Of a stretch of 64,000 nucleotides of DNA, positions 9,783 through 64,000 are shown piece after piece (the first letter of the stretch is position 1; the number at the start of each line of letters is the position of its first letter). The notes below the pieces were generated by a model. The model made no database searches. It was not told where the DNA came from and worked only from the letters and a program-made list of their open reading frames with translations. Position numbers and translations under genes: made by a program. Source of the stretch: a virus; IMG/VR virus record IMGVR_UViG_3300030117_004232, positions 9,969-73,968 of that record, one strand, 5' to 3'.

Positions 9783-10065
9783 CGACACCCCCACGCAAGT
9801 TACAGCCAAACGCCTGACATTCTTTGATATTCAGGCAACTGCGCCCTTGCTTATGAATGGGAATCTAGACTTTAGCGACTATTGGAATCATGCGTTTAGC
9901 CAGTGGCTAACGTGTGACCCACCTGTTGATTACAACTCATTAAGCCCTGAAGATGGGGCTGAACTCGCCAAACTACTTCCTGACCCCAGCGAAGTCATGG
10001 GGTGGCTAGTTTTTCGGGAAGCGAAGCCGGACGAATCAGACACTTTGTCCATGGGAGACCAGTGA
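9754..10065 (+). CDS. Tail assembly chaperone (lambda gpG-like)
   Basis: Lies between tail tube and tape-measure-like gene; typical size. Confidence 0.55.
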   Translation: MSQEKKLKINDTPTQVTAKRLTFFDIQATAPLLMNGNLDFSDYWNHAFSQWLTCDPPVDYNSLSPEDGAELAKLLPDPSEVMGWLVFREAKPDESDTLSMGDQ

Positions 10066-24000: not shown

Positions 24001-27000
24001 TAACTTACCAGTTCATGCACATCCGATGAATCAACCAATCAGTCTTTACAATTCAGGTACACCAAGAGAAGTCGGGACATCAAATTGGTCGACTACACGG
24101 TTTTCTTCAGTGATTTGGCACATGGATGGAGGCTATCACCCCGGTGGACATTTCTTTGATAATGCGGTGCGCAAAAATCCAATGAATGTTGTGGCAAACG
24201 CTGTTTTGTCTGGAAATACAACTAACCAGCATAACCCTGCCGCATTTAGGGTAGCAGGACTGTTGGCAACGGCTTACAACGCGGCATTCACCTCACCTCA
24301 CGAAGAACAACTGTGTGATGATAACATTGTTTTGGTCGATGCCACTAGAGTGCAGAATGCAGAAGAACTAGGTACAATCCTATCAGCAGCAATCAATACA
24401 TTCCCCGGTTCTTATGGACTCAAAGCGATTGGTGGTACATTTATGCCATCGTTCCAAACCGGCACAAATCAAGACCGATATGGTTGGCACAAACTGATTA
24501 TCGACCACAGTAGTGGATATGTTCCTCACAACTCTACCACACCTGCATCTATTACAGTGAAAACTACGATTCCTTCGACTTTACCACAGTATGGTTGGAT
24601 TCGGATGTCAAGTGGAACTAAGGCTGCCGTGGCTGCCTATTCGTCATATACGGGTAAGACATTCACTCTGGCTGTAAATTCAGTTATGTCTTCTTCTTCA
24701 GGTAATGAGACAAATGCCTACGAGCCAAATACTGCCGCAGCAATTACAGATACTGATTTCAATGTGGAAGATGGAGAAGTGTATGTATGGACAAAGGCAG
24801 GTACACGAAGACACAACAACGTGTCTGGTACTACTTCGCGCGACCACTTATGTCAAGTTCACTTCAATGGACTGATTGATGCTGTAGATAGAACAAAGCC
24901 CATAGGCGCAGTTGGTTGGCACGGCGAAGCATATTCTTACTTCAATTCTTACCTAGTTGATTCAGCCTATCCTGCCGGACTTGGTGCTTGGCATCCCTTC
25001 CTCGGATTCAGTCCTTATGGTGCTGCTGAAACATGCTTGGGTAGTTCAACACCAGTAGGGGTTGCAGACACTCCAACAGCACTTGCCTCAGAGTTTTGTG
25101 TAAATGGCCTATCTTCTCGACACTTGGTAGCGGTTAGTCGAGAATGTGCTTTGTCCTTGGTAGCATTTTCTGACAGAGATGGTATATTTATGCGAGGAGA
25201 CAGATTATCAGCAAAATTGGGGTCTGACATTTCCTACGCCGGTACGGTAATGAATTTGAGTGGGTTTAGCAATTCAAGATTTGAAGCGCCCGCGACAGGT
25301 GGACCTCATATTGAAGCACATTTCCACACTGGATTTGCTCGACCTACACTAGCAGCAGATTATCCTGCTACTAGTGCTGTTCCAACTGACGCACAACTTC
25401 ACCGCGCCATGCAATCAGGTGATATGGTACACGGAACCACTTGCCAATATCCAACAGGAGACTTGTTTTGGGATGAAAGCGTCGTCAAGTCAAACAACTT
25501 CCATGAAGATTTTTCAGATTACGGCGTCGAGTGTATGGGGGCCACAGCCCACACAGATTACTTGAATACCGCAGTGACTGCTGCTCAGCCTCACCCCGGT
25601 TTATACGGTTACTACTCAAAGCGCTCTGCTGCACGTAATTTCCTACCAGAACATATTGTATGGAAGCGTATGGATGGTGGAAATCTAACGATGCCTGCTC
25701 TTAATGCTCGTGGTTTAGGACAAATGCCACTTTTCTACGCAAAGGATAGTGGGGCATGGAAGTTAAATGGAGAAAAAATTCTTGGCAACGTAAGGTTTTC
25801 ATTTGAGACAACAAATGCTTCTATGTTCCCGATTATACAAGCACAAGAACTAGCACATCCGCAGTTAGCAGAGCAGTACCCAAGAGAAATTCAACAGGCT
25901 TTACTAATTCCAAATGAACAAGAGCAATTCAAGAGTGTACAAGTCATTGATGATACAGGTCAAGAACATCGCCTTGAAGGTGGTTCTCCACTCGGTACAG
26001 TCATACTTGATTTCCGCCATGTTAGTGATAGAGAAATAGAAGGATTGGCGCCTGCTTTGGCTGGAAGCGGCGTATCTCCCAATATGAAGATTGGATTACC
26101 AAACCCAGATGAAATACCGGGCAATGTCATTGTCCGTTCTGGGTTTGACCGAATCCAAGGCTATCAGAATGAAACAATGGGGTCTGGTGGGCTTCAGCAT
26201 CCTTCACAGCCAAACCAACAAATTATTGATTTGTTCAAAAACACGAATGCAGGCCCCCGGTTGTGGCCTTTTTGGGAAAATAACGGATGGGAACACATTA
26301 GTCAAGATAGTGTAGATGTTTCCCAACTCAAGAATATACACCGATTGGATTATCCAGCATCTACAAGTAACGGGTGGGAGGATTCCACTGGAAATGCACC
26401 TTTGCAAACTGCCTATGAGCCCCATGACCGAAGTTTGTATTTCCATGTAACAAGAATGGGCATATCCTCTACCCATCGATATTCTAATGACGAGTTGACT
26501 TTCAGTAGTTACAGTGGTACAACAATTACGGTGGGTTCAGCCCCGGAAGCCACGACTTGGAAAATCGAAAGTGAAAAAAGTGGTGGGCGATGGTTCCTAC
26601 GAGTCTATGACCCTACGACCAACAAAGGTGTAATTGCCAGTTACACAAATACGTCTAGTAGTACCTTTACTGGTGTGGTTTATTCTCCTGATTTTGCTGA
26701 GTTTGTCGAAGGTAAGACTGGTTTGAAAGTCGTGCCTTCTTATTACATGCCTGCTGGTACTACTCGATTCTTTGCATCTCGTCGTTTGCGAGACCACTGC
26801 GAGGTTAGCGGCGCCAGTCCAGATGCAGCGCAAATTGATTGGTTTGCTTTCCATAGTACTTTGCCTGCGGACACAGCCGCTACAGAAAATGTCAGTGACA
26901 ATCCGTGGTATACTCACTTTACAGAGAGGGGATTAACTCCTATGCCTATCCCGCGTATGGGCCATCATTACGTAACGCCTACAATGGCTATTTTGCCCGG

Positions 27001-30000
27001 TCACTACGCGCATCCTGCATACCAACGAGTGTACGATTTGCACCATGCATGTAGAAGTTCCAATCACAAGCCTATGGTTGATGAATTATTGGGCCTAAAG
27101 GCTGCAACAAGGGCTGCCAATGAAACAAGCGGCGTGCTGGTCAATCATCCTAGTGCTGGGACTTACGCTGTGGGAACAACTGCTATTGCAGTGGATACAG
27201 TAGATGCTACGACTAAATTCTCAATTGGTGACCGAGTCTATGACAGTGTAGGGACTGAACTAGGATTTGTAGAAGCAGTCGGGGCTAACCTCGTTACCTT
27301 GGCCTCTCCGGGTATACCTGTCACCATTGCCAACAACGCTGCTCTGTTTATGAGTACGGCGACAACACTTACCCGAGGTATTGGATGGAATCCAGCAGCG
27401 TGGTTCTCAACACCTACAGCCACCTATGGTCCGTCAGATATTCATGGCGGTGCGTTTACTCTGATGACTGAAACCAAGGTCAAGTATGATGGATATGGAA
27501 TCGCAGCGTCTGCGGGAACTCCCGGTAATACAAATGCAGCCGGTGGGCACAGTCTTGTTTTGGAAGCAGGCTCGACATATACCCTCAATCATCATTTCCC
27601 TGACCCATTGGAAGTGGGCGCGTATCAAATTATCATTCAGCCCAATGTATTCGCACAGCAATTTAGTGGATTTCATGTAAATCATGCAACCGAAAATAAA
27701 GCCCCGTCTGAAAGTGGAACTAAAGTTACAGAATTGACTGGTCAGCAAGTAAACACGGTGATTGCAGTTGAGCAAGATACAGCCACAAATGGTGCTTACA
27801 CGCTGATTTTAGCAGAAGCGATGATGGCAGATGTGCGTGGCTGTGAGGTCATTGTAAACGAAGTAATGTTGGATATTGACCCTGATGTCGGTAGTCAGTT
27901 TACGTGCTTACCGCCCATGGCTCTGTATAATCCTCTAGGTGTTCAAGAAACAGCATCTGCACCATTTACACGACGGAGTTTACCTTACCGACCGGGTATG
28001 TTCATTAGTTCTACGCCGGGTAGAACTTTGACGATTCCTTGGTGGGGTATGCTGCACAAAGACGGATTGACAGAGGGGCTTATCCAAGGGGATGGACTGA
28101 GTGTGACCGCAGGTGGTAGTGGTTACACAGGTGCCACCAACGTAGCAGTGGGCGGAGGAAGTGGCACTGGTCTTACAGTCAATACCACTGTGAGCACAGG
28201 TGCAGTTACCGCAGTTGCTATCCATACGGCTGGAACAGGCTATCGACTTGGAGATACACTTACCATTAGCGGAGGTGGGAGTGATGCTACACTTAGTGTA
28301 GATAGAATCAGTTCAACGGGGTGGAGGCACCTAGAATGGCACAAGCCAGACAATTACTACGAATTCTGTCGAGCATCTTATGGGTGCGTCGGTGCACAAT
28401 TGACCTTGGCTGGCTACCCCACCTCTTACATGGACATCTATGCCAAGTATCGGAACAACCGCTCAGCCAACCCAACTTGTGTTGTACTTTCATTGAGTTC
28501 TGGCGGCAAGACGATTACGGTGGACAACAATGACTTATTCCCTTCCAGACCACACTATGGAGAGCAGTTAGAATACACCAAGAATGGTATTCGCTTTACT
28601 GCAACTTACAACAATCGCACAGGTACGCTTGATTATGCTACACTGGGTGTATCGACTATTTTCCAAGGGGTTGAAGGAAGTGCTGATTTCTGGGCAAACT
28701 TGGCCGCTAATCAGGTACTCAAACTTACGCGCCCATACGATACACACCCCTCTGACAGTATCTATCTGGAATCCGATAGTAGCATTGTTACCAGACTTAT
28801 GGAGAAGCCTTTAGAGATACACAAAGGGAGTCGTGATACGAACAGTTTGCATCTACCTGATGCATATTTGTGTATGTGGCATCCCAACCTTGGTCGCCCA
28901 TTCACATGGTATAGTGATACTGCTACTGGTGGTAGTCGCAACTTCTACACAGCGGCTGGTGCAGCAGACACTCCGGTTGACCAAAAGCCATACAATCACA
29001 TTCCTGAGCACTTTGAAACCATCCACTATCACGATTTCAATTATGCAGCGTCGAAGGGGCCATTTGGATTGGCTATGCGATGGATTGTACCACCTGCTGC
29101 TGGCACAGCGCCAACCAACTCAAATGATGGCATGACATATACTGCGGCTTTGATTGATGCGGATGCAAACCTTGAGCATCAAGGTGGCACGTCTGGTTCG
29201 GACAAGTACAACTTTGCTGGCTTTTGGCCTAGTGGTAGTCGTGGTGGGCCCGGTGTCAGTCGGCTGGAAATGTACGCAGAAGCCTTGGCAGGCTGGGGTG
29301 GCGAAAGTTATGGCATGACTGTTACGACTTACACAGATAGCACAGGCATTGCATCTGCATCAAAGCCAAACAACTTGAACGATGGATTCGGCTATCGGTT
29401 TGGTGTAGGCCAAGCCCGAAACCGACCGCGTTGGGCACCTTATATTCGCGGTTGGTTGGAAGTTGCAAATAGCAATGCTCTACTGGGTTACTATCACGGT
29501 CCACTTATCCAACAAGATAACAAGACAAACGGATGGGATTATGTTGGTGCAGACGGATTGGCTGATGTGAGCCTAACCGCACTCTACGTGGGTATTTTGG
29601 AAAGAATCACACAAGTAAGTTCACTGATGAATCAAGACCAGTATGGTCGAAAGGTGCGCTATAGTGATGGTAGGCGGCATACTGCCCCATTCGGCTGTCC
29701 TGTCCGCACATTGCGCAATGCCTCAACTGTACGTCGGTTGTATCCGGGCGATGATACAGGAAAGGGTGTGACAGAACTCGCCAATGCACATCGTTACTAC
29801 ATTGTTGACTGGTGGGGCAATACCCGTGGTGAAGATGTCAGACGTTTCCCTGTACGTGGATTCGGTATTCGGCCATCTTGGGACCCCGAAGATGCTTATG
29901 CAGACACCAACGTCACTCATCGACCCAAGGATGGTAGTGCGGCGGGCTCAGGGCTTCTGTTCAATGGTGATTATTCAGACAAGTATAGCGGTAACAACAA

Positions 30001-31270
30001 TTACGTCAGTAACACCGCATCTGGTAATATCAATGGTGGTGTTGATTGGTTTAACCCAGCCAGTTCACTGCGTGTGGGTGACCGTGGTGATGGACGTGGT
30101 TGCCGATGGCCGACTGTGTTTAACGAAAGTCTACTTATGGCCGTCAGTGAAACCCACGATGCCTCTGGACTTGTGTTGTCTCACAGCACAGCAGAGCCTG
30201 CCTTTGGACAAGGACTCATCCGACCCAGTAACTTGGTTTTGCAAGATGGAGAAGTTGAAAGAGGTATCAGTGACCGAGTCGATTTGAATTCCGATGATGG
30301 ATTGCTGCGACCAAGTGCATCCGTAGGCGAAGGCTTTGAGACAGTGACTGCGGATACTCGTGGTGCTGAGCCGGTTTCCAGAGATGACTTCAGATTAGGA
30401 TTAGATGTAGATACGTTGGCTGAACTGAATGATGGGACTTCAAGAGAGTACGTGGTTATGTCCACAGAGGCTGCGAGTTTACACACAGACCGTGAAGTCG
30501 GTCAACGGACCAATATCAGAGGAGCATACAATGTCGCATCTCGCACTCTTACCGATTTGGATATGACTGCGCTTACCTTTGCAGCACAGCCTGTGGCTGG
30601 AATCATAAAGCACTCTAATGCACACGCTATGTGGTCATTGGGCGGAACATACGTCATAGATTGGAGCGTATATTCTGGCGTACTCAACGACAAGGGTTGG
30701 GGTAAGGCCGGTGCTTCTTCGTCATCCAATCCATATCAGGATTCAAACCACGACCCTACTGTTCAGGCTACGAACACAACTGATTCGACAATACAATTCT
30801 TGTATCGCCCACAACAAGTGTTAGATTACAAGCATTCGCAGATGTTTAGACCCTACATCACACTCAACGGTCCACAGGCTGGGGCCAATTTTTACAAGGC
30901 GACAGCAGGAGGGAAATACGGCTTGTTTACCAGTGATGTACCCAGTGCTCGTACAGGGACGCCCAGTTCGCCTCCATACGCGCCCGTGTACACCATGGTG
31001 CCAACCTCTAGTACCACCGTGCCCGATAGCATGGGACCAAAGATTCAGGGTGTGGATGTTACGGGATACAACAAGGCCGACATCCGCAGCCCTGTAGCAC
31101 GCATGCTAATGAGTGAGAACACACTAGAACATTTCAGGTCTGACGCGAGCAGAACAGATGGTACTGGTGAAGGTGATTACACTGTTCAGCCAAGGCACAG
31201 TCAAACTTTGCACCCGAAGGGTAGCGATGGCGATGCATCTTATAACACAGGAGACCATAGCGGGGAGTGA
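15011..31270 (+). CDS. Giant (5,419 aa) virion/tail protein with N-terminal LamG-like domain and repeated beta modules
   Basis: Uninterrupted 16.2-kb ORF; FTLETWF, FRGTIEAVHL and GLWRFEE LamG-like motifs; Thr/Gly/Ser-rich. Likely start is ATG 15020. Confidence 0.8.
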   Translation: MFDMTIMIDPGYALKFNGITDGVLIPASQHTLHGTDTQDDKQLPSALSSFTLETWFIPDSGGSVFEYENIMRLTVGTPSSPAPAQFEINLKNIAAGTIESHVLTSAKPVYGIDGSFTHWDGTLFPHPALEEHNSFLATDAGSNDLTALNEGHRELLNVTVVFNRKYIVMYVNGDIVAAKEFDEDHEVVLTPSRMFLGGRGGEFRGTIEAVHLSRGSKDSGKADFAPIKSDDTIGLWRFEEPIEPISLITTTPSISASTGASSSINIGATAAQALIDELSGQSGLTAINFTTTSPWTDMGQYSVKVHTATSFATRTIPKVPYNILVNPLGYTSTTGKATNKAPERLRLMAIDASAGTITVESIHLDFASNSTDGRRGALQAHDAGRFVVITGDCIVDGGNGNEYQPQGSGTQFSHRQGQVVIDESRFENHGLMFSMTMANRDVPENKFSAYTTNPGSGFLMGHSGRHTLNHVKSHPFMGILPVPSDYIVDKKIDATADVISATFESQYSDIKDTVPPNSIVSAFSTHGPVNIKPTIHTSFVTRVCENGMSDISDSSRGLLAVGGPGFNPIPFALKALNSPDALNPTGSVAEHLIPSSESRIAILNVPSLSTYNYAPFVQIHYNAIDHTGAAFTTCAASRITGTSNATTVTVQSIKSFGKDGETFPANELYIGTTPASTAQKATNTVTLHHGTKQLRFSASTDSAFQSADVADAVVRRLIGGPSLMVTKTVPDVSTIVTGSTSILDLIHTDLGTNPLAVYAPGGIIEFDIPDNFPFNDGDLEGDSSEGVVAEEVLDFSLTPAAYLPLHSSDSPQTTPRLISTAKTELTGQNSVFNRIIVKQNFNPLGLSENGDLLTANTSTGRSRSTGVFINNGGGYSSSTTGAMTVDGNNATHHIKTGDILYKLDGTVVGTVTGVTSTSVTASAGTSSAVVDNEELFTSPPSPTRGNTNQSTAVHEIFDIIEHTSHNGKARLIVQPSDRTRFSQGSRLEDVAFGGNSATIEHLLSRGRVLSFGEDNYGNSTLRAHGLISDISAASVNVKGDAAPDSHIVKEIMPGAPVVAVTLGGPGQGAINTKETWQPSPTARLAWNTRRDCTTLITAYNTSTITVKALNNRADDLASWGTYCFPKIGRVYIGLKDDVTGRMRYASAEYASKNATTFTFDTGAAAGRGTGLFLDFDGNEEARFTDWYATIIAEADTSSTGLVGLMLSIDDKFSEESMCSDGTTINDRLFQTLDTVSHDYQLGSQYASTRALVEIPLFEEFFFENHDKGVFPGPDNSMKIHIDCTHTAHTWAPNPVGRRFEAVSPKDPEVFAAFSYTIGNQTHQPGTKVSQPYDVSNHRVHVEDSDIFPIASAAPIAVAGINGSARYRRAFLSSGEWCIYVAKDQSSTVSLELAGSAGDTWSMSKNFLRDLTVGALLTPAPGYQDMNYRSIADNPELISAGYEGRRSFYYDRSNAMTQGGNVDYGLRQYVSAVEFRAGPKTNPHLDRIQNKRARSKVVATTSGGGGVVATITVEDASLFPTDTPNALYGYRLAWRDTGGTIRYGTYTTRKPNANLMTVTSTETTHPAVGDEVYIESLYALSASTWPRTIDGFLSRAWAYPYAPGGLRDGDTVWMNMHYTNPHAMEGLFCKSRGTLDEGKVWTGFNGGMGALHATNPRDSIPLENFLIGNTCVETAQNFVQHVNKSVELHHTAMGVASPADKSPMVAYIDPYQSTDEFTRVLLYDVAHDREFIAFQDLWMQVQSSADATKIGAAPSHTGGVILNTDANSGSWLDVPAGFASQSPYLNSTTQSDFIETAYCHASTWNASNTSAGGVKGLGIHRPQIQTSSFGVYAPRTNPAVVDSASAATKHDEVVKDQREQSTFFDTPDGTRCIPAFLALKGIRATTLDLTNHKENHSSHGRGLNSHPHWTQMDFTRRLTIDFGEVSLRDGVTDIESAAREVVRMINQAGAKNGRTHARLHSDFSATASTHDPAPFWAPEQAFASLDRGTHMGYVRAHLGRVSIDSSDPENKGFSIVIHSTVPGASGRNFCTWLDNSKAQSPYRPEYMIGHGGRFRNYWCQPDEVTGENMHPAPMPINRHGRPFAPITTLKEFLPPEELNDQMMNNLDLGPETQATALFASTNEESSTGRNYNSVANESFETKSPAGTLIDGLRVGTKAKARINFGGMTMAGIPGWAPDAGKWGFGRDGENPRFDAIYGVGVNNATIKATSLNLDNSADRYIPLDDMQSQNIGDGNLYGIRFVDHRGDSHTIRMVYRQYGERFANDLTTLPPSIDDELIIHFDDRDVAQGGFTIGQHMAGTGEVTGNMTNGTASSWKGNLWNNYPARNVGIRVSTSITGSGSARQLTLTLQDPYQSGGNFSHPDVLGYLGFPKKDGMIQLSDDGGHLGLTFSYSSRTTGGVGSTVRFYGVVGGFAGYDETDANEDWILSPRINFTSVLTDEVIAAAVEYAMKLDNVNSDDLNVTSFDCTSMFAPDGRTLKEWGVSPTAIRIRTKSDASIPLNKLFEVSREKDWGLVEGASSDTAVGSHHTGGLSNSERDAGTRLDVGYIPETVLHITTKYRGSNANTATPVLVDNQNNVVDTGLWRRNLRGENYTDVAGDHIIPRVDSPMVKIDSDTSTTLVLASNEYVFLAGAPSTTAGTGRWGERFTLWFGSEEYGTVAGTDEDTLTFAANDGTSSGFTNGNIDQNDILIKNGGPVHKAKQIDGIRRAGSKLSSPFLYFRGGRDSADHWVPLFFGGGFSGVVMDINDGTENDYSDFYTHPYAAGPTGACGLQNAGEMSTAFSLLDTNAMLAMFPGTPYLDQHKGQNNPPFFNQDAILPFDMTKGGNAKVTGVDYTDGTNTVTVTVPSPIVIKFASANARYSAAPSAEHTTYMIFGPGQSFPHNYMSQEPQGSAMVTAGNGYSAVPIARTAGGLAFLPNELANGSPTHAGFNTGGAEAHLPMSTFYQKNNVSGFNYVMNWEPAKGFPNHRSLSGASSVGYSNVFSDSRFFTGKAPGTSNLPVHAHPMNQPISLYNSGTPREVGTSNWSTTRFSSVIWHMDGGYHPGGHFFDNAVRKNPMNVVANAVLSGNTTNQHNPAAFRVAGLLATAYNAAFTSPHEEQLCDDNIVLVDATRVQNAEELGTILSAAINTFPGSYGLKAIGGTFMPSFQTGTNQDRYGWHKLIIDHSSGYVPHNSTTPASITVKTTIPSTLPQYGWIRMSSGTKAAVAAYSSYTGKTFTLAVNSVMSSSSGNETNAYEPNTAAAITDTDFNVEDGEVYVWTKAGTRRHNNVSGTTSRDHLCQVHFNGLIDAVDRTKPIGAVGWHGEAYSYFNSYLVDSAYPAGLGAWHPFLGFSPYGAAETCLGSSTPVGVADTPTALASEFCVNGLSSRHLVAVSRECALSLVAFSDRDGIFMRGDRLSAKLGSDISYAGTVMNLSGFSNSRFEAPATGGPHIEAHFHTGFARPTLAADYPATSAVPTDAQLHRAMQSGDMVHGTTCQYPTGDLFWDESVVKSNNFHEDFSDYGVECMGATAHTDYLNTAVTAAQPHPGLYGYYSKRSAARNFLPEHIVWKRMDGGNLTMPALNARGLGQMPLFYAKDSGAWKLNGEKILGNVRFSFETTNASMFPIIQAQELAHPQLAEQYPREIQQALLIPNEQEQFKSVQVIDDTGQEHRLEGGSPLGTVILDFRHVSDREIEGLAPALAGSGVSPNMKIGLPNPDEIPGNVIVRSGFDRIQGYQNETMGSGGLQHPSQPNQQIIDLFKNTNAGPRLWPFWENNGWEHISQDSVDVSQLKNIHRLDYPASTSNGWEDSTGNAPLQTAYEPHDRSLYFHVTRMGISSTHRYSNDELTFSSYSGTTITVGSAPEATTWKIESEKSGGRWFLRVYDPTTNKGVIASYTNTSSSTFTGVVYSPDFAEFVEGKTGLKVVPSYYMPAGTTRFFASRRLRDHCEVSGASPDAAQIDWFAFHSTLPADTAATENVSDNPWYTHFTERGLTPMPIPRMGHHYVTPTMAILPGHYAHPAYQRVYDLHHACRSSNHKPMVDELLGLKAATRAANETSGVLVNHPSAGTYAVGTTAIAVDTVDATTKFSIGDRVYDSVGTELGFVEAVGANLVTLASPGIPVTIANNAALFMSTATTLTRGIGWNPAAWFSTPTATYGPSDIHGGAFTLMTETKVKYDGYGIAASAGTPGNTNAAGGHSLVLEAGSTYTLNHHFPDPLEVGAYQIIIQPNVFAQQFSGFHVNHATENKAPSESGTKVTELTGQQVNTVIAVEQDTATNGAYTLILAEAMMADVRGCEVIVNEVMLDIDPDVGSQFTCLPPMALYNPLGVQETASAPFTRRSLPYRPGMFISSTPGRTLTIPWWGMLHKDGLTEGLIQGDGLSVTAGGSGYTGATNVAVGGGSGTGLTVNTTVSTGAVTAVAIHTAGTGYRLGDTLTISGGGSDATLSVDRISSTGWRHLEWHKPDNYYEFCRASYGCVGAQLTLAGYPTSYMDIYAKYRNNRSANPTCVVLSLSSGGKTITVDNNDLFPSRPHYGEQLEYTKNGIRFTATYNNRTGTLDYATLGVSTIFQGVEGSADFWANLAANQVLKLTRPYDTHPSDSIYLESDSSIVTRLMEKPLEIHKGSRDTNSLHLPDAYLCMWHPNLGRPFTWYSDTATGGSRNFYTAAGAADTPVDQKPYNHIPEHFETIHYHDFNYAASKGPFGLAMRWIVPPAAGTAPTNSNDGMTYTAALIDADANLEHQGGTSGSDKYNFAGFWPSGSRGGPGVSRLEMYAEALAGWGGESYGMTVTTYTDSTGIASASKPNNLNDGFGYRFGVGQARNRPRWAPYIRGWLEVANSNALLGYYHGPLIQQDNKTNGWDYVGADGLADVSLTALYVGILERITQVSSLMNQDQYGRKVRYSDGRRHTAPFGCPVRTLRNASTVRRLYPGDDTGKGVTELANAHRYYIVDWWGNTRGEDVRRFPVRGFGIRPSWDPEDAYADTNVTHRPKDGSAAGSGLLFNGDYSDKYSGNNNYVSNTASGNINGGVDWFNPASSLRVGDRGDGRGCRWPTVFNESLLMAVSETHDASGLVLSHSTAEPAFGQGLIRPSNLVLQDGEVERGISDRVDLNSDDGLLRPSASVGEGFETVTADTRGAEPVSRDDFRLGLDVDTLAELNDGTSREYVVMSTEAASLHTDREVGQRTNIRGAYNVASRTLTDLDMTALTFAAQPVAGIIKHSNAHAMWSLGGTYVIDWSVYSGVLNDKGWGKAGASSSSNPYQDSNHDPTVQATNTTDSTIQFLYRPQQVLDYKHSQMFRPYITLNGPQAGANFYKATAGGKYGLFTSDVPSARTGTPSSPPYAPVYTMVPTSSTTVPDSMGPKIQGVDVTGYNKADIRSPVARMLMSENTLEHFRSDASRTDGTGEGDYTVQPRHSQTLHPKGSDGDASYNTGDHSGE

Positions 31271-55205: not shown

Positions 55206-55391
55206 TCATTTGTTTCCCTTGTTTTTTGGGGCTGTCTTCATATCTTTCTTGTTTCTATTTAAAGGGGGGTCGATTTTCAACCCCTCTAATTGCTCTGGGT
55301 CGATGGTACAATCGCACGGCATAGGCTCCCATTCTCCATCGTATCCTATCTGGGCTACGATACCTGTCCCTTTGCATGCTTTGCATCTCAT
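55206..55391 (-). CDS. DnaJ-type CxxCxGxG micro-protein
   Basis: CKACKGTG...PCDC. Confidence 0.55.
   Translation of the reverse strand: MRCKACKGTGIVAQIGYDGEWEPMPCDCTIDPEQLEGLKIDPPLNRNKKDMKTAPKNKGNK
55231..55264 (-). promoter_or_regulatory. Repeated TATA-containing element, copy 2
   Basis: 34 bp identical to 61520-61553; upstream of the DUF932 gene. Confidence 0.7.
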
Positions 55392-57391
55392 TCATTCCCC
55401 TCCAATTTCCATCCGCGCTCGGTCTGTAACTTCTTCACGAGTTCACTGACAAGTCCTTGCCTCTCTTCGGCATCTCCGCCGTCGAGAACGGCCTTCACGA
55501 CTTTCCGCTTGCTTTCAACCACACGGTCGAAGTGTTCGTCAATCGTGCCAGCACAGGAGATGTACACTGCGTGCACACTGTCACTCTCCTGCCCAATACG
55601 GTACACTCGGTCCTCCGCTTGTTCTTCATCGGTAGGAACCCATTCGCGCTCAAGGAATAGTACGGTGTCTGCTGCTGTGAGGGTAATCCCTTCCTTGGCA
55701 GCAATGGTGTTACAGATGAGTACGTCAATCTCATTGTCTTGGAAATTGTCTACAATCTCCTGACGTTGCTTGGATGATACGTCACCACTGATGGTATCGA
55801 CAACCAACCCATCTTTCAGACGCATGCCTAAGTTGTTCATGACATCACGGTGATGTGTGAATACCACAATGGGCCTGCCCGTCTGTTCATTGTACTCCTG
55901 AATCCACTCAGAGGCATACTTGACTTTGATGCGCCCACAGATGTGGCGTAGGTCATTCAGCATGTTCAGCATCATACCCTGTGGCATGGGCTGATTGTTC
56001 AGGTAGTAATCGTCGATGCGCCTGTCCCACTCTTCTTGGGCGAGGTCGTATGGTCTACGCTCTTTCCTATCCAAATGGATGGGAAGGAACGTGCGTCGCT
56101 TGGGTGGTAGTTCAGGTAGCACCTCTTTCTTCAGACGACGAATGCACATGTCTCTGGTCAGTCCATTGAGTTCCTTGATGTTCGATGCTCCGTCGAAGTT
56201 CCATGCGTACCCATTGTGCCATGGGTCACAGTATCGCTGAGCAAAGTTCCAAAACGAAGAGAACTGAGCAGGCCGTATGAGATTGAGTGTGTTGAAAAAC
56301 TCAGAGGGGCGGCTGCTAATTGCAGTGCCACTGAGTGCTAGAATCTGAGGGATATACTTGGCAAGTTCAAGTGTTGATACAGTACGCTTGACTGGGTTGT
56401 TCTTGGAGCCACGGTTCTTCAGGTAGTGGACCTCGTCAAGCACGATGAGTTGTGCATCGATTGCCTTGAGTTCGTCTAACTTCTTGGTCACCAAGTCGTA
56501 GTTAATGACAATCCAATCGGCTGAGCGAACCTCATCCTTTCCTTTGGCAATTGCGTACACGTCTTCGTTAGGTAACCACTTACTTACTTCCTTTACCCAG
56601 TTGTATTTCACATTGGCAGGGCACACAACAATGGCCGGTCGCATCTCTGGGTTCGCGGCTGCATACCCAATGGCGGAGATGGTCTTACCAATCCCCATCT
56701 CATCCCCAATCAGGCATCGGCCATCACTGGCTTCAGCGAATGCAACTGCGACCTTTTGGAAGGGGAACAGTTCCAATCCTTCAGGGAATGCACCCTCAAG
56801 TTTCTTGGAAATCTCATCCATTTTGCTGTCATCGAGAAGGGCTGCCCCACTCATTTCTACACGCTCAATGCTTCCTTCGACATCTTCCTTGACATCTTCG
56901 TTGTCGATGATGGCATTGGCAAGGCAAGGGTACACATCCTCAAGTAGAGAGTGTAGTGTACGTGCTTGTGTAGATGGAATCGACCAACACTTCTGCTCTT
57001 TGTGGAACTTGCGACCAGAGATGCTACGCACAATCAGGCGTACCTTGTCTCGGAAAGCATTGTCGGGGATGTAGGGCCAGTGTAGATACAGCAAGCCCTC
57101 TGATAATCGAGTCCAGCACTCACTGTTGCCTCTTGTAGTCTCAGGCAATTGCTTGGTTCTTGAGATGAGGGCCGTGCAATTGTAATCCATTCGCTCAAGG
57201 ACTTCAATCGCCTTGTTGATTGTGACTTGGTTATCCTGCACGCTCCATGCTCGCTTGTCTGCATCCCACTTGAATTGGGGGAAGGGTAGCACATCCTTGA
57301 GGATGGCATTGGTCTCAGGTGAGTACGGATAACGCAGGGCAAGCCTGTTGCCATACGAATCTGTGTACGCCTCTACTTCGATAGGTGTCAT
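55388..57391 (-). CDS. SNF2-family helicase with two HARP-like domains (SMARCAL1-like annealing helicase)
   Basis: WDADKRAWSV and FHKEQKCWSI HARP-like motifs; DEMGIGKT, DEVH, LSGT and QAEDRVYRIGQ. Confidence 0.9.
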   Translation of the reverse strand: MTPIEVEAYTDSYGNRLALRYPYSPETNAILKDVLPFPQFKWDADKRAWSVQDNQVTINKAIEVLERMDYNCTALISRTKQLPETTRGNSECWTRLSEGLLYLHWPYIPDNAFRDKVRLIVRSISGRKFHKEQKCWSIPSTQARTLHSLLEDVYPCLANAIIDNEDVKEDVEGSIERVEMSGAALLDDSKMDEISKKLEGAFPEGLELFPFQKVAVAFAEASDGRCLIGDEMGIGKTISAIGYAAANPEMRPAIVVCPANVKYNWVKEVSKWLPNEDVYAIAKGKDEVRSADWIVINYDLVTKKLDELKAIDAQLIVLDEVHYLKNRGSKNNPVKRTVSTLELAKYIPQILALSGTAISSRPSEFFNTLNLIRPAQFSSFWNFAQRYCDPWHNGYAWNFDGASNIKELNGLTRDMCIRRLKKEVLPELPPKRRTFLPIHLDRKERRPYDLAQEEWDRRIDDYYLNNQPMPQGMMLNMLNDLRHICGRIKVKYASEWIQEYNEQTGRPIVVFTHHRDVMNNLGMRLKDGLVVDTISGDVSSKQRQEIVDNFQDNEIDVLICNTIAAKEGITLTAADTVLFLEREWVPTDEEQAEDRVYRIGQESDSVHAVYISCAGTIDEHFDRVVESKRKVVKAVLDGGDAEERQGLVSELVKKLQTERGWKLEGNE

Positions 57392-57729
57392 GCCTCTTCC
57401 TCATTCTCGCTTGTTTTCATGTCGAAGTAATCTCTCAACAAGTCCCACGCAATACCATCAGTCTTTGCGAAGATGTTGTTTGAACGTAGTCGTTCCATCT
57501 GTTCCTCTATCTTCTTCGACACTGCTTCAAGTTCCTCGATTGCGTCTAGAAGGCCACGCTCGACCTTCTCTGCCTCTCTTACACAAACACCTTCTGCTGC
57601 CAATAGAGATATTTCCATGAAAAACTGTGATTTCTCTGGCCATGCTTGTGGGAAAGCCATTCTCAAATCTTCAAGTATCTTATTTCTCAACCGCCAAAAG
57701 ACAATTCCTGCTTCATTCATTTCATTCAT
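57388..57729 (-). CDS. Hypothetical coiled-coil protein
   Basis: Coupled ORF. Confidence 0.55.
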   Translation of the reverse strand: MNEMNEAGIVFWRLRNKILEDLRMAFPQAWPEKSQFFMEISLLAAEGVCVREAEKVERGLLDAIEELEAVSKKIEEQMERLRSNNIFAKTDGIAWDLLRDYFDMKTSENEEEA

Positions 57730-57947
57730 TCCATCAACTCCTTCACTTCAGCCCAGAATAGTTCGCGCCACTGCGCTTGATATGCTAGGCCACCTTTCTC
57801 TCCATACTCATTTCTTGAGTCGGCTTCAAGCCAACGGTGCTCAGGCCAAGGCTTGTCGCTTGCAGCCCAAGGATACCAGACAGGTCGCCCTTCGGCTACG
57901 TGGTTGGCGTAGTCTTTCTTCGCATCTCCTCTTGCTTTCTTGGTCAC
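57726..57947 (-). CDS. Hypothetical Trp-rich micro-protein
   Basis: Starts at the GTG inside the junction repeat. Confidence 0.6.
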   Translation of the reverse strand: MTKKARGDAKKDYANHVAEGRPVWYPWAASDKPWPEHRWLEADSRNEYGEKGGLAYQAQWRELFWAEVKELME

Positions 57948-58126
57948 GCCGTCACCTCCACGACAATCTCATCCCACGAAGCATAGCCGTATGGCTCATC
58001 ATTACCATCAATTGCACCTGCAATAATTCCAACCAACAACTTAAGCGCATAATCTTCACGCCAGCCCCAGTGACTCAAACACTCATGCTTAAGCCAATCC
58101 ATTACTTTCTCTTTCGTATCGCTCAC
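57944..58126 (-). CDS. Cassette micro-protein (MSDTKE...EVTA)
   Basis: Bounded by junction repeats; open frame. Confidence 0.7.
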   Translation of the reverse strand: MSDTKEKVMDWLKHECLSHWGWREDYALKLLVGIIAGAIDGNDEPYGYASWDEIVVEVTA

Positions 58127-58356
58127 GCCGTCACCTCCACGCATTCTTCACAAACAACATCATTACCCATGTGTGGCCCTCCGTCGCAATCATTGACCTT
58201 CTCGCATTTAGGACACCATGCGGCATTAGTTACCAACCCAAGAAAATAGTCATAGGTAAAATCCCTACCTGTTCTGTCAATAAACATCAAAACTTCATGC
58301 TCCCAATTCCTCGTTTCTCGCCAACCGCAGTTCCATACATCACCTTCACAACTCAC
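58123..58356 (-). CDS. Cassette Zn-finger micro-protein (MSCEGD...EVTA)
   Basis: CPKC...CEEC; bounded by repeats. Confidence 0.7.
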   Translation of the reverse strand: MSCEGDVWNCGWRETRNWEHEVLMFIDRTGRDFTYDYFLGLVTNAAWCPKCEKVNDCDGGPHMGNDVVCEECVEVTA

Positions 58357-58505
58357 GCCGTCACCTCCACGCAGTACCGGTGTTCACAATTCCAACATAC
58401 TCTATATGTGGTAGTATGAGAGAAGTGTCCATTCCAATAGTTCTCACTCTTCCTTTTCTTAGTACGAGTGTAAGTCTTTTGATTTGCTTTGCATTTGTAA
58501 CTCAC
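58353..58505 (-). CDS. Cassette micro-protein, 50 aa (MSYKCK...CWNCEHRYCVEVTA)
   Basis: Translated by hand; exactly fills the interval between repeats. Confidence 0.65.
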   Translation of the reverse strand: MSYKCKANQKTYTRTKKRKSENYWNGHFSHTTTYRVCWNCEHRYCVEVTA

Positions 58506-58648
58506 GCCGTCACCTTCCTACATTTTCTTCGTGGAACTTTTGCCTTTTTCTTGACCACTTGCCCACAACATTTGCATTTGTAATGCACCTCAATAGTTCC
58601 ACTCGGCCATTGAAATTGCCTTGCAACCACAAATTCACATCTGCTCAC
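58502..58648 (-). CDS. Cassette basic Cys-rich micro-protein, 48 aa (MSRCEF...KVTA)
   Basis: Translated by hand; exactly fills the interval between repeats. Confidence 0.65.
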   Translation of the reverse strand: MSRCEFVVARQFQWPSGTIEVHYKCKCCGQVVKKKAKVPRRKCRKVTA

Positions 58649-58827
58649 GCCGTCACCTCCATAACCTCTTTGAATATCGCTACCGCATCCTTGATGTGTT
58701 GGTGCGCCTGTTCTATTTCTTCAGTGTAGCCATCACCAAACACGGATGATTCCCATAATGCCCCTTCAATGTCAAGTAGCATTTGCCAATGTCGTGGTTC
58801 AAAACCAACAGTAATCTGCCAACTCAC
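58645..58827 (-). CDS. Cassette micro-protein (MSWQIT...EVTA)
   Basis: Bounded by repeats. Confidence 0.7.
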   Translation of the reverse strand: MSWQITVGFEPRHWQMLLDIEGALWESSVFGDGYTEEIEQAHQHIKDAVAIFKEVMEVTA

Positions 58828-58997
58828 GCCGTCACCTCCACGCCTTCTTCCATAATACCACGACCCTTCTTTGCATTTTCATAGGGGCTTTCTACATCAC
58901 ATGATACAACCATACCGCAGTTCTTACACTTGAAGCCCACGTATGCGCCGTCAACGTCATCGTAGTATGATAACTCAAAATCATGTTCACAACTCAC
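58824..58997 (-). CDS. Cassette Zn-ribbon micro-protein (MSCEHDF...CKNC...EVTA)
   Basis: Bounded by repeats. Confidence 0.7.
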   Translation of the reverse strand: MSCEHDFELSYYDDVDGAYVGFKCKNCGMVVSCDVESPYENAKKGRGIMEEGVEVTA

Positions 58998-59509
58998 GCC
59001 GTCACCTCCACGCCTTGCCACCAATCGGGGGCAGGTGTTCCCTTCTCCCACTTGGCGAACTGCTTGGAATGGTAGTAGGCTCGGTATGCCTTGACCACAT
59101 TATCATCACGATACTCGTCAGGCATGGCCTGTGCGAATGGTGTGAGATACCTTTCATCCGTAAATGGAATTAACCCACATATACAATGCATATCTATGAT
59201 AGGGTCGTGACAAGCATGACGCTTACCAAACCGCTTTGTGTATTCTTCACACAAAGCGAGTGCGTGTTGAGCAAGCCATAGAAAATTGGAACGGCTGTTA
59301 CATGCCCATACTGTGCATGGGTGATGAGCGTAGCCACCCTTGTAGGGTGTACCCTTCTTGGTCAGTGGCATCTGCTCGTCAGTCGCACCGTGGTAACGCA
59401 GGGCCGATGCCATCATCTGTGCCGCTTCGACACACATCTTGGGAACGTGCTTGTCACAGTGCATACGTGCCGCTACTACGGGGTCTAAGTCTAATACGAA
59501 TATGTTCAT
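58994..59509 (-). CDS. Pyrimidine-dimer DNA glycosylase-like (DenV/Pyr_excise family) protein
   Basis: MNIFVLD.DP..AA..HCDKHV.KM..E.AQM, HPC..W and AYRAYY motifs. Confidence 0.8.
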   Translation of the reverse strand: MNIFVLDLDPVVAARMHCDKHVPKMCVEAAQMMASALRYHGATDEQMPLTKKGTPYKGGYAHHPCTVWACNSRSNFLWLAQHALALCEEYTKRFGKRHACHDPIIDMHCICGLIPFTDERYLTPFAQAMPDEYRDDNVVKAYRAYYHSKQFAKWEKGTPAPDWWQGVEVTA

Positions 59510-59580
59510 TCTTGTCCCTCCTTGCCGACTTCGCACTCGCATACAATGTCTTGATTACAAGACCAACAATTGTGATTCAT
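59506..59580 (-). CDS. 24-aa Cys-rich micro-peptide
   Basis: MNHNCWSCNQDIVCECEVGKEGQE; SD present, coupled at both ends. Confidence 0.5.
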   Translation of the reverse strand: MNHNCWSCNQDIVCECEVGKEGQE

Positions 59581-60054
59581 TCACTCGCCTCCTTCTCCCC
59601 CTAGGTTGTCTAGGGATTTTTTCATGCCGCCCCATGATACTCGGTACGCACCTGATTCAGTCTTCTCGCTCTGCACTGAGGGCGGTGGTGGTGGGTGCGA
59701 TGATGATAGTTCCTCTTCTTCCAACTGGGGGGCAGGTGGTTCGATGCCTTCCCAGATGTCTGATACTTTCACATGACCATCTCCAAAGATACCGTCAGGG
59801 AAATACCATGTGCTTGGCTCCCATTCCATCCCTTCCATGTTCCCAACTGTACACCATACGCCGCTTCTCTTGCATCGTAGAGTTACGTAAGGCGGTCCAT
59901 CGAATAGGTCTGGATTGACCGCCTCAAATAGTTCTACTTCGTACCCATACTTGGAACACTCCTCCAGTAGTTCCAACATTCTCTTTTGTTTGCCTAGCAT
60001 TTCTGCTTCGGTTGTCAGTTCTTTCACTCGCTTGTCAATATCACTCTGCTTCAT
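59581..60054 (-). CDS. Hypothetical protein
   Basis: ORF in the early operon. Confidence 0.6.
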   Translation of the reverse strand: MKQSDIDKRVKELTTEAEMLGKQKRMLELLEECSKYGYEVELFEAVNPDLFDGPPYVTLRCKRSGVWCTVGNMEGMEWEPSTWYFPDGIFGDGHVKVSDIWEGIEPPAPQLEEEELSSSHPPPPPSVQSEKTESGAYRVSWGGMKKSLDNLGGEGGE

Positions 60055-60286
60055 TTGTCTCTCTCCATTCTTCTATGACCTTATCACAATGCTTGACTAG
60101 ACCAATGCCCCATTGAGTGTCAAGGTATACAGCCAATGCCTTGGCATCATCTACAGACCACGAGCAATACTCAGGGTCGCTTAGTGCATCTCTCAATACG
60201 TAAGTGAAGTTTTTCACCGTGTCGAATCCCAACAGGTATCGGATTAGTTCTTGGTTGTGCTTCTTCAGTTCGTTGCTCATGTTCAT
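60041..60286 (-). CDS. Hypothetical protein
   Basis: MNMSNEL...; SD GGAGG; coupled. Confidence 0.55.
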   Translation of the reverse strand: MNMSNELKKHNQELIRYLLGFDTVKNFTYVLRDALSDPEYCSWSVDDAKALAVYLDTQWGIGLVKHCDKVIEEWRETNEAE

Positions 60287-63097: not shown

Positions 63098-63438
63098 TCT
63101 TCTTCACCTCGTATCACTTGTTCTGCTCGTCGTATAATGGAGTAAGCATCAACTCCAACTCCTTCAGCCATCATTACAAGCGCATCTATTCTAATGTCTT
63201 CTAAGACTTTACGCAACCGCTTGACTTCTTCAAGGAGAAGTGGTGCATCTGCGATAAGTTGTGCATTCGCCTTGCACATGTCTTCCCACTTTCCACCTCT
63301 GTCATTCATCACTTGTGCGATGTGCCAATGATGAACACCTTCGGGTAGGTTTTCATCAGCCCTTATCTTGTAGCGACTGTTGGGTGATACTCGCCACGGC
63401 CCTTCTGTATGTCCTTCGTATTTGTCTGTGTCAATCAT
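63094..63438 (-). CDS. MIDTDKY-family paralog
   Basis: Conserved blocks A and B present. Confidence 0.75.
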   Translation of the reverse strand: MIDTDKYEGHTEGPWRVSPNSRYKIRADENLPEGVHHWHIAQVMNDRGGKWEDMCKANAQLIADAPLLLEEVKRLRKVLEDIRIDALVMMAEGVGVDAYSIIRRAEQVIRGEEE

Positions 63439-63727
63439 TCCTCTTCACCTCTTGCAACTCACTTCCAAGTGCTTTGCATAATACTTTCAGTACATAATAA
63501 TCCTGTACAACATAACCAATAGCCTGTTCCATAGCATCACGCAATCGCTTGACTTCTTCAAGGAGAAGTGGTGCGTCTGCTATGATGTGCTTGTTACACA
63601 TACCCATGGGGTCTGGTATGGTGCATACATGGTCGCCGTTTGCATCCTTTACAGAATGTCCGGCATTACCTGTCTTGATTGACCACGGCCCTTCCGTGTG
63701 TCCTTCGTATTTGTCTGTGTCAATCAT
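63431..63727 (-). CDS. MIDTDKY-family paralog
   Basis: Conserved blocks A and B present. Confidence 0.75.
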   Translation of the reverse strand: MIDTDKYEGHTEGPWSIKTGNAGHSVKDANGDHVCTIPDPMGMCNKHIIADAPLLLEEVKRLRDAMEQAIGYVVQDYYVLKVLCKALGSELQEVKRND

Positions 63728-64000
63728 TCGCAATCACATCCTCTAACAAGCGAGAAATCAAGCCGAAATTCTCATGATACTCTCTCGTAATGTTCACAAG
63801 ATTTTCACGTAGTTCGTTGTATTCTCTCTCAACTTCACGCAACCGCTTGACTTCTTCAAGGAGAAGTGGTGCGTCGGCTATGAGTTGTGCTGATTCTCTA
63901 TTCACTTGACCTATCATTACAGACATCTCTTGCCCTTTGTAGTTGGTCTTTATCGCAACATCGGAATAGATTATGGGTCGCTCATCTGTTCCTTTAGATG
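63720..64000 (-). CDS. MIDTDKY-family paralog, 5'-truncated by the window
   Basis: Frame is open to the window end; contains AQLIADAPLLLEEVKRLRE. Confidence 0.7.
   Translation of the reverse strand, partial: SKGTDERPIIYSDVAIKTNYKGQEMSVMIGQVNRESAQLIADAPLLLEEVKRLREVEREYNELRENLVNITREYHENFGLISRLLEDVIAND

Follow-up and report, generated by a model that had tools for sequence, protein, structure and literature searches.

An array of small genes joined by one repeated stop/start junction in a magrovirus-like archaeal virus

Here we describe a hypervariable accessory-gene array of a magrovirus-like archaeal virus, in which small and mutually unrelated genes are joined end to end by copies of a single 20-mer, GCGTGGAGGTGACGGCGTGA. 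The array lies in a stretch of 64,000 nucleotides (nt) taken from IMG/VR record IMGVR_UViG_3300030117_004232 (positions 9,969 to 73,968 of that record), which we call the window and whose coordinates are used throughout unless another contig is named. It starts at the stop codon of a pyrimidine-dimer DNA glycosylase-like gene, and every copy of the 20-mer is at once the end of one gene, a Shine-Dalgarno (SD) sequence and the overlapping start of the next gene. Across dozens of environmental virus genomes this one 20-mer joins about 100 unrelated gene families, and a variant of the array with junction-precise ends is present in a natural population. We consider it probable that the junction is a translational-coupling element which doubles as portable homology for the shuffling of cassettes, as we call the genes it encloses. 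The work follows an earlier reading of the letters of the window (the sequence-only reading), which had proposed an integrase-free, integron-like cassette system joined by an identical 16-mer.

Results

The sequence-only reading had reported seven copies of the 16-mer, one of them a variant, at intervals of 143-230 nt. When the window was searched for GGAGGTGACGGCGTGA with up to two mismatches, exactly this set was recovered: seven sites, all on the minus strand, six of them exact and one with a single mismatch, with low coordinates at 57944, 58123, 58353, 58502, 58645, 58824 and 58994. The mismatched copy, at 58502, reads GAAGGTGACGGCGTGA (GAAGG..). In 100 dinucleotide-preserving shuffles the average was 0.03 matches, and no shuffle attained seven. 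From the highest coordinate downwards the copies are spaced by 170, 179, 143, 149, 230 and 179 nt, and each of these spacings is 2 mod 3 because the -1 overlap of stop and start requires it. Read on the minus strand, a copy supplies the codons GAG GTG ACG GCG TGA, which are the EVTA-stop of the upstream gene (KVTA-stop at the variant), and at every window copy the GTG start of the next gene overlaps the TGA stop (GTGA). Four nt ahead of that GTG stands GGAGGTGA, an 8-nt perfect Shine-Dalgarno, so that the threefold role ascribed to each copy, as gene end, ribosomal binding site (RBS) and start/stop overlap, is borne out.

The repeat is longer than had been thought. All seven copies of the 16-mer are present, but in 101 junctions from related contigs four additional 5' bases that lay outside the search pattern, GCGT, are each about 72-79% conserved, and the repeat unit is therefore the 20-mer, which encodes an upstream tail ..VEVTA. 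At its other end the information content of the same 101 junctions drops to background directly 3' of the TGA. The SD and the start/stop overlap account for 12 of the 20 nt; GCGT and CGGC, the other eight, are explained by neither. The exclusive use of GTG starts is true of the window, but not of its relatives, whose junctions start with GTG in about 60% of cases and with ATG in about 35%. As the sequence-only reading had it, this junction type is confined to the array within the window: the other junctions in the window mostly have an ATGA overlap, preceded by SD-like motifs and spacers that differ from one to the next, and outside the array the sole further GGAGGTGA is found near 47317. The complete virus record (73,968 bp, estimated to be 69% complete) contains no copies beyond these seven. 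The 20-mer has no dyad symmetry and no hairpin was found in it; over 146 junction contexts the mean folding energy was -21.2 kcal/mol against -20.8 kcal/mol in shuffles, pairing of the 20-mer was not raised, and the junction carries no conserved RNA structure.

A repeat that encodes a uniform protein tail might owe its conservation to the peptide. In such a case a C-terminal ..VEVTA tag would direct its carriers to a protease, the viral chaperonin or the virion, with the repeat in the DNA as a side effect. All upstream proteins of the window, and about 90% of those in relatives, do end in EV[TK]A, and the virus encodes a thermosome-like chaperonin. We examined codon choice at the cassette ends of 102 unique junctions, excluding glycosylase ends and taking the cassette bodies as background. 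The Thr codon of the tail is ACG in 87 of 89 cases (background 13%), and Gly at codon -6 is encoded by GGC in 31 of 32 (background 21%, p=2e-20), while the residue at codon -6 itself varies between Gly, Cys and Ser. Synonymous sites frozen in this way mean that conservation acts on nucleotides and not on the peptide. Same-family members without the tail also occur (L058_5821), and in the methyltransferases that share the junction the tail lies outside the Pfam domain. Taken together, a peptide tag is very improbable as the source of the repeat.

Two samples of relatives were used. An exact-motif scan of IMG/VR yielded at least 119 stretches, and in about 20 of these the motif forms a multi-copy array. 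The second sample avoids ascertainment by the motif: 80 loci were collected through the glycosylase protein alone, of which 71 are non-redundant, and these were walked gene by gene from the glycosylase stop. That stop falls inside a repeat copy in 51 of the 71. From there the repeat junctions run on mostly contiguously, usually for 1-11 copies, and then change abruptly to generic junctions; glycosylase relatives farther away have no array. Over the 71 relatives the number of mismatches between NTGA junctions and the 16-mer is bimodal, with 69 junctions at 0, 55 at 1, 18 at 2 and 9 at 3 mismatches and a second mode at 8-9, and in five relatives of 90-109 kb the copies fall into a single cluster (8/9, 3/3, 9/11, 1/1 and 2/2 copies). 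Bimodality and clustering together mark the element as a discrete feature of one locus, and not as this virus group's usual way of joining genes.

In several relatives a core replication gene stands behind the last repeat copy and is started by it, namely that of a 314-amino-acid (aa) RFC-like AAA+ clamp loader (L136:1024-1968; homologues in L142, L148, L160 and L185), and the junction is therefore not limited to accessory micro-genes. A search of cellular genomes (185,579 prokaryote species) found the 20-mer in single copies, mainly in high-GC actinobacteria and in other bacterial metagenome-assembled genomes (MAGs). Two MAG contigs, L219 (CAXXDF010000003.1, labelled 'Opitutales') and L223 (NZMJ01000078.1, labelled 'Maricaulis'), contain the viral glycosylase gene and, after it, 2 and 5 copies of the repeat, respectively, and are evidently mis-binned magrovirus-like DNA. 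A host origin of the junction was considered and dropped, the 20-mer being absent from cellular genomes save for the single matches and these two virus contigs.

What the junction joins is diverse. The six open reading frames (ORFs) enclosed by the window copies (57, 60, 48, 50, 77 and 60 aa) occupy their intervals exactly and belong to different blastp families, which confirms the earlier description of six unrelated ORFs of 48-77 aa, and four of the six have at least four Cys. Compared with Pfam and PHROGs, the window cassettes gave sub-threshold zinc-finger matches only. In the ESM Atlas they matched viral hypothetical and 'zinc-ribbon' clusters at 0.90-0.91, which we take as a lead only, and a single-sequence AlphaFold model of the 77-aa cassette was unusable (pLDDT 45) and was discarded. 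Our wider survey covered 48 non-redundant arrays with 150 repeat-started genes of median length 53 aa. These sort into 28 families and 69 singletons, and 26 of the 28 families are found in more than one neighbourhood. Of the array genes of 26-100 aa, most have GTG starts and overlapping stops and may for that reason be missed by automated gene calling.

The cassettes are coding genes under purifying selection. Members of a family differ mainly at synonymous sites (pooled pN/pS 0.32), and 97 of the 104 copy-to-copy spacings are 2 mod 3. The other seven intervals are 1 mod 3 (L058 1586-1722, L104 6966-7333 and five others); at least some of them contain either a cassette whose reading frame now ends before the following repeat or a pair of genes that meet at a non-repeat junction, and these intervals may be decaying cassettes. 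Larger genes carry the same junction as well: an N6/N4 methyltransferase (..GVEVTA), C5 methyltransferases (..SVEVTA), a Dam-type methyltransferase and an HNH-like gene. The methyltransferases (C5, N6/N4 and Dam D12) and the HNH-like gene are located at L161:6543-8200, L133:6960-7706, L162:7003-7782 and L172:4818-5744, which suggests that anti-restriction or host-interaction genes are kept in the array.

The abundance of Cys invites a simpler origin, in which one zinc-ribbon micro-gene was duplicated in tandem and its copies diverged everywhere except at a selected junction. At least four Cys are present in 75 of the 130 cassette proteins of up to 110 aa, and many of the proteins end in C-x-C-VEVTA. 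Yet the same ends are found on proteins without Cys and on methyltransferases from three unrelated Pfam families, no family is present twice in any one array, and the information content is at background right beside the repeat. Cassettes that are 94-100% identical at different positions and in different genomes bespeak exchange and not ancient divergence. We find descent from one tandemly duplicated gene hardly credible.

Relatives that share the junction differ in the content and order of the genes it joins. The sequence-only reading had singled out this comparison as the one that could overturn it, by turning up the same genes in the same order with variable junctions, and the outcome favoured its interpretation. 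In the window family f27 precedes f01, whereas L159 has f01 with f27 farther downstream; at about 98% nt identity L171 has the order f07-f03 and L194 the order f03-f07. The edges of blastn blocks shared between arrays lie mostly 0-5 nt from the edges of the 20-mer, and cassettes that are otherwise dissimilar have junction matches of 23-33 nt in common. In L127, the closest IMG/VR relative, the glycosylase gene is 88.8% identical at the nucleotide level, and similarity to the window is lost exactly at 58994, the last base of copy 1. In the pairs L169/L174 and L135/L157 the cassettes are 94-98.6% identical, and the glycosylase gene (about 72.6%) is the only other similarity longer than 100 nt in the fetched loci. 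Within the junction, the first 8 nt track the upstream cassette (38/57 against 34% of random pairs) and the last 12 nt show only a weak association with the cassette on either side, a pattern compatible with crossovers inside the repeat and too weak to count as evidence for them.

Swapping has also reached the glycosylase-like gene itself, which is present as a divergent allele, with 72-79% nt identity where its flanks have 91-99% and with sharp boundaries (window 58994-59509; L143, L153, L171 and L194, in which it lies at about 6001-6545). This pattern points to allele replacement or diversifying selection on a repair-type gene. The 3' end of the glycosylase gene had been tried as a yardstick of genome divergence (cassettes 94-100%, glycosylase 70-79% identical) and was rejected, the gene being a swapped allele.

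A rearrangement at the repeat is also seen in a natural population. We compared assembled contigs of four public metagenome runs with the window over 56800-60200. One contig from an estuary run (2,062 nt, depth 45) is about 97% identical to the window at the helicase end, the 73-aa gene and cassette 1, and joins 57943 directly to 58824, so that 880 nt are skipped and 19 letters fit both sides. This joint is the loss, or conversely the gain, of five cassettes with both breakpoints within repeat copies, and is a junction-precise deletion of the kind for which the sequence-only reading had suggested a search in metagenomes. The k-mer length of these assemblies is one that we take to be 31; if that is right, the 19 shared nt are shorter than a k-mer, and the joint was therefore spanned by real reads and is not an artefact of the assembly graph. 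Single window cassettes stand within foreign sequence in other runs: 58353-58515 (cassette 4, in two metagenome records), 57944-58143 (cassette 6, in one record) and 58645-58816 (cassette 2, in run X4). The probable source sample includes a variant with another cassette after the glycosylase gene.

Among the joints listed for the four runs there were no back-joints. Other joints, among them 57963->58992 and 58149->58994, match the window on each side for a mere 20-27 nt, scarcely beyond the repeat; their likely source is other viruses, and they were set aside. In the estuary contig, window positions 57553-57724 (172 nt, the N-terminal part of the 113-aa gene downstream of the array) are replaced by 262 unrelated letters, and one edge of this replacement is at the ATGA junction 57725/57726.

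No enzyme dedicated to the exchange was recognised, as the description 'integrase-free' had anticipated. A six-frame search of the record (69% complete) and of five relatives (85-100% complete), with positive controls, found no tyrosine recombinase (PF00589), and no serine recombinase (PF00239) was found in the record or in the five near-complete relatives. Any recombination would therefore need general viral or host functions. Three such functions had been named by the sequence-only reading, and they fared differently. The Cas4-like exonuclease is present in the window as a PD-(D/E)XK nuclease. The adjacent HARP annealing helicase is confirmed as an SNF2 helicase, in which Pfam detected no HARP domain. 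The Sak4-like ATPase was not detected by Pfam, AAA_24 giving only an 11.6-bit P-loop match inside the clamp-loader ORF, and there is no Pfam match to a Rad51/RadA-type ATPase in the window.

These searches bear on a true integron analogue, a dedicated site-specific system in which an unrecognised virus protein, such as the DenV-like glycosylase/lyase or an HNH-type nuclease, would cut or nick the 20-mer. The start of the array at the glycosylase stop in 51 of 71 relatives recalls the adjacency of intI and attI, nucleotide-level conservation extends to the non-SD bases, and one array contains an HNH-like gene. The lack of any tyrosine or serine recombinase, and of dyad symmetry or a hairpin in the motif, speaks against such a system, and the adjacency would be automatic if the glycosylase gene were merely a fixed left anchor. 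In addition, distant relatives keep the glycosylase without the array, which fits an ordinary UV-repair role in surface-ocean viruses. A site-specific system strikes us as improbable.

The array can now be followed gene by gene; all its features are on the minus strand. The anchor gene (58994..59509, 171 aa) matches Pfam PF03013 Pyr_excise (E=2e-8, 34.9 bits with a cut-off of 23) and phrog_624 (E=3e-60) and ends in ..PDWWQGVEVTA, its last codons being copy 1 (58994..59013), a full 20-mer with the VEVTA codons, the SD and the GTGA overlap. Cassette 1 (58824..58997; 57 aa, 4 Cys) belongs to a family that is also the fourth cassette in L118 and L132 (94% nt identity) and is present in L091 and L174; copy 2 (58824..58843), at its end, is one breakpoint of the natural 880-bp deletion variant. 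Cassette 2 (58645..58827; 60 aa, no Cys), a singleton in the IMG/VR survey, ends in copy 3 (58645..58660), an exact 16-mer with TTAT in place of GCGT as its 5' flank. Cassette 3 (58502..58648; 48 aa, Cys-rich and basic), with the C-terminus ..RKVTA, ends in the variant copy 4 (58502..58517). It is followed by cassette 4 (58353..58505; 50 aa), whose family is found in L087 and L159 at 88.7% nt identity, though in reversed order there, behind the family of cassette 5, and copy 5 (58353..58372). Cassette 5 (58123..58356; 77 aa, Cys-rich), for which a zinc-ribbon-like nature is a lead only and some of whose family members have no VEVTA tail, ends in copy 6 (58123..58142), and cassette 6 (57944..58126; 60 aa) in copy 7 (57944..57963), which is the last copy and the other breakpoint of the deletion variant. 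The last repeat-started gene (57726..57947; 73 aa) ends at a generic junction, GGAGTTGATGGAATGA, and with it the array ends.

Downstream, in the same orientation as the array and also on the minus strand, come a gene of 113 aa (57388-57729) and an SNF2-family helicase of 667 aa (55388-57391; Pfam SNF2-rel_dom 7.6e-33 and Helicase_C 2.9e-17; best PDB match the SNF2/Rad54-family helicase 1z63). The array sits between the glycosylase-like gene and this helicase in one co-oriented string of genes. Elsewhere the window encodes a family-B DNA polymerase, a thermosome-type chaperonin, an SU10/HK97-like capsid protein, a clamp loader and the PD-(D/E)XK nuclease, with Pfam matches to DNA_pol_B (4.7e-35), Cpn60_TCP1 (3.7e-116) and SU10_MCP (1.2e-9) and clamp-loader phrogs as well. 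Magroviruses are viruses of marine group II archaea (Poseidoniales). Genes for a thermosome subunit are known from their groups A and D, and one for an SNF2 helicase from group A (PMC5434244). With group A in particular the window shares PolB, the clamp loader, the thermosome subunit, the SNF2 helicase and an HK97/halovirus-like structural module (PMC5434244). Judged by this match in gene content, the window is a magrovirus-like archaeal virus contig. A keyword search of three magrovirus papers found no mention of the repeat or the array.

Two other features of the window may be recorded. The structural half of the genome has a single ORF of 4,018 aa (19214-31270, plus strand). At the window end a block of about 32-42 nt is present three times, about 300 nt apart, in a tandem family of small genes (63215-63246, 63543-63576 and 63833-63874); the block also matches L127 at 88-94%, and this is a paralogue array with an architecture unlike that of the cassette array.

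Discussion

On the reading we favour, the same 20 letters would do two kinds of work. In RNA, the 20-mer would give the upstream gene its last codons (..VEVTA) and present the 8-nt SD 4 nt before the next start, and the GTGA overlap would let the terminating ribosome restart on the next micro-gene. From its layout the junction is likely to mediate coupled translation, and the cassettes are probably served by a single upstream promoter. In DNA, an identical 20-mer at all junctions, population-wide, would amount to portable homology. A crossover or template switch between two copies, in one genome or between co-infecting relatives, would delete, insert, permute or exchange whole genes, and the product would always be in frame, with an RBS and coupled. 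Each exchange would regenerate the repeat, and bases without a translational role would stay frozen because the repeat is recreated each time. We infer that the pattern arises through homology-driven recombination and not from selection alone, and that general viral or host proteins carry out the exchange. The cassettes, mostly Cys-rich micro-proteins with DNA methyltransferases among them in relatives, may serve host takeover or counter-defence.

Several observations weigh against this account. Every gene boundary in the array is a repeat, and whole-gene insertions and deletions filtered by selection would therefore map to repeats as well. Mosaic boundaries are also present at the 5' side of the glycosylase gene, where there are only short generic SDs and no long repeat. 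Among close pairs the array is less shared than the flank in two of three, and in the third the upstream flank is equally patchy. Because the glycosylase gene has been swapped, the contrast between cassettes and glycosylase overstates horizontal transfer, and it is clean only for L169/L174 and L135/L157. A viral recombinase is unconfirmed in the window, AAA_24 giving its weak P-loop match and Rad51 none. The idea of the sequence-only reading that crossovers between copies shuffle genes agrees with the mosaic content, the block edges and the deletion joint at the repeat, of which the repeat may be the cause.

The strongest competitor is a purely translational signal, like the start-associated sequences (SAS) of cluster K mycobacteriophages, in which genes are turned over by illegitimate recombination and selection while the repeat has no part in DNA exchange, a host or viral factor perhaps binding its non-SD bases. 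The 12 of 20 nt given by the SD and the overlap, together with the gene-boundary mosaicism that these genomes also have away from any long repeat, fit such a signal, and SAS likewise has an SD core and conserved flanks that do not pair with rRNA, ahead of the starts of unrelated gene families (PMC3203893). Against it, about 100 unrelated families, three methyltransferase families included, bear the identical 20-mer at both ends; this is the strongest argument, because independent illegitimate insertions would not yield it. The motif is moreover limited to one array, whereas the other coupled NTGA junctions of these genomes, which number in the dozens, vary in sequence; the junction homology of 23-33 nt between unrelated cassettes is left unexplained; and no conserved RNA structure is found at the junction. 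A signal with a translational role only therefore seems unlikely to us, though it deserves to be taken seriously. Translational selection and recombination are not mutually exclusive.

A bolder version of the recombinational account holds that the 20-mer is a selected recombination signal, and the array an integrase-free cassette exchange system in which the coupling junction is itself the crossover site, possibly with help from a virus protein that recognises it (the adjacent DenV-like enzyme or another nuclease) and from circular cassette intermediates. We regard this as doubtful, somewhat more so than the purely translational signal. If it were true, the array would be a population-wide pool of about 100 or more micro-gene families, in which in-frame inserts are translated at once, and would serve as a nursery for new proteins and counter-defence genes.

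The reading of the junction as coupling element and portable homology has consequences short of that. The array marks a site in the magrovirus genome where putative host-interaction genes, namely methyltransferases and Cys-rich micro-proteins, are turned over, and a design in which every crossover is safe (in frame, with an RBS, coupled) could serve the shuffling of synthetic operons.

Comparison with known systems

The closest precedent is found in T4-type phages, where promoter-early stem-loops (PeSLs) form conserved promoter-terminator motifs between ORFans in hyperplastic regions and bound insertions, deletions and replacements (Arbiol et al. 2010, PMC2839356; Comeau et al. 2014, PMC4122927). 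A PeSL is intergenic and combines a sigma-70-like promoter with a terminator hairpin; mini-circles have been shown, and the authors themselves compare the arrangement with integrons (PMC2839356, PMC4122927). The two systems have in common a short repeated expression signal between small, mostly ORFan genes, repeat-bounded insertions and deletions, and the lack of any known dedicated recombinase; for the 20-mer, repeat-bounded events are seen in block edges within 0-5 nt, in the 880-bp deletion and in the edge against L127. They differ in that the 20-mer has no intergenic space or hairpin and probably no promoter: it is a translational signal within coding sequence and gives a uniform upstream tail. 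The host here is an archaeon. With this precedent (PMC2839356) the idea is not entirely new.

In cluster K mycobacteriophages, SAS is a 13-bp element, GGGATAGGAGCCC, found 3-7 bp ahead of gene starts (Pope et al. 2011, PMC3203893); its copies, scattered over half the genome, keep to their own gene families from phage to phage, and the host genome has none (PMC3203893). Both elements are asymmetric repeats near the starts of unrelated genes (non-structural ones in the case of SAS), with an SD core and conserved non-pairing flanks, and SAS sometimes includes the upstream stop. Their sequences are unrelated, GCGTGGAGGTGACGGCGTGA against GGGATAGGAGCCC, and the 20-mer forms one contiguous array with reshuffled content, whereas no cassette shuffling has been reported for SAS.

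Integrons consist of intI, attI, attC and Pc, and attC sites are imperfect inverted repeats that fold as single strands. Like integron cassettes, those of the array are promoterless, lie in one orientation, would be expressed from upstream and vary in content behind a fixed anchor gene (48 arrays behind the glycosylase). Unlike an integron, the array has no integrase, no attC-type site and no attI, and its cassettes meet at a direct repeat in which stop, RBS and start are combined. The earlier comparison with integrons stands as an analogy in outcome, and fails for the integrase and for an attC-type hairpin.

Direct repeats of 20-30 nt that lie 90-1000 nt apart are a classical substrate for RecA-independent slippage and single-strand annealing. 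The 880-bp variant has the signature of such an event, with 19 nt shared at the joint. For T4, recombination is cited as needing less than 50 bp of homology (PMC2839356). Events of this kind would explain losses and duplications within one genome, whereas near-identical cassettes in dissimilar loci need recombination between co-infecting genomes too.

In Botstein's 'linker' model, modules are exchanged between viruses at short conserved sequences that also ensure correct expression. To our knowledge clear natural examples of it are few, and the T4 PeSLs, whose arrangement fits the model, are the best. As a feature the array is well supported and widespread in one marine archaeal virus group, and we see it as a probable case of modular shuffling mediated by a linker, the linker here being a translational-coupling junction. 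It would add an unusually clean case of a linker from another domain of life, and one in which the class of signal is translational and not transcriptional.

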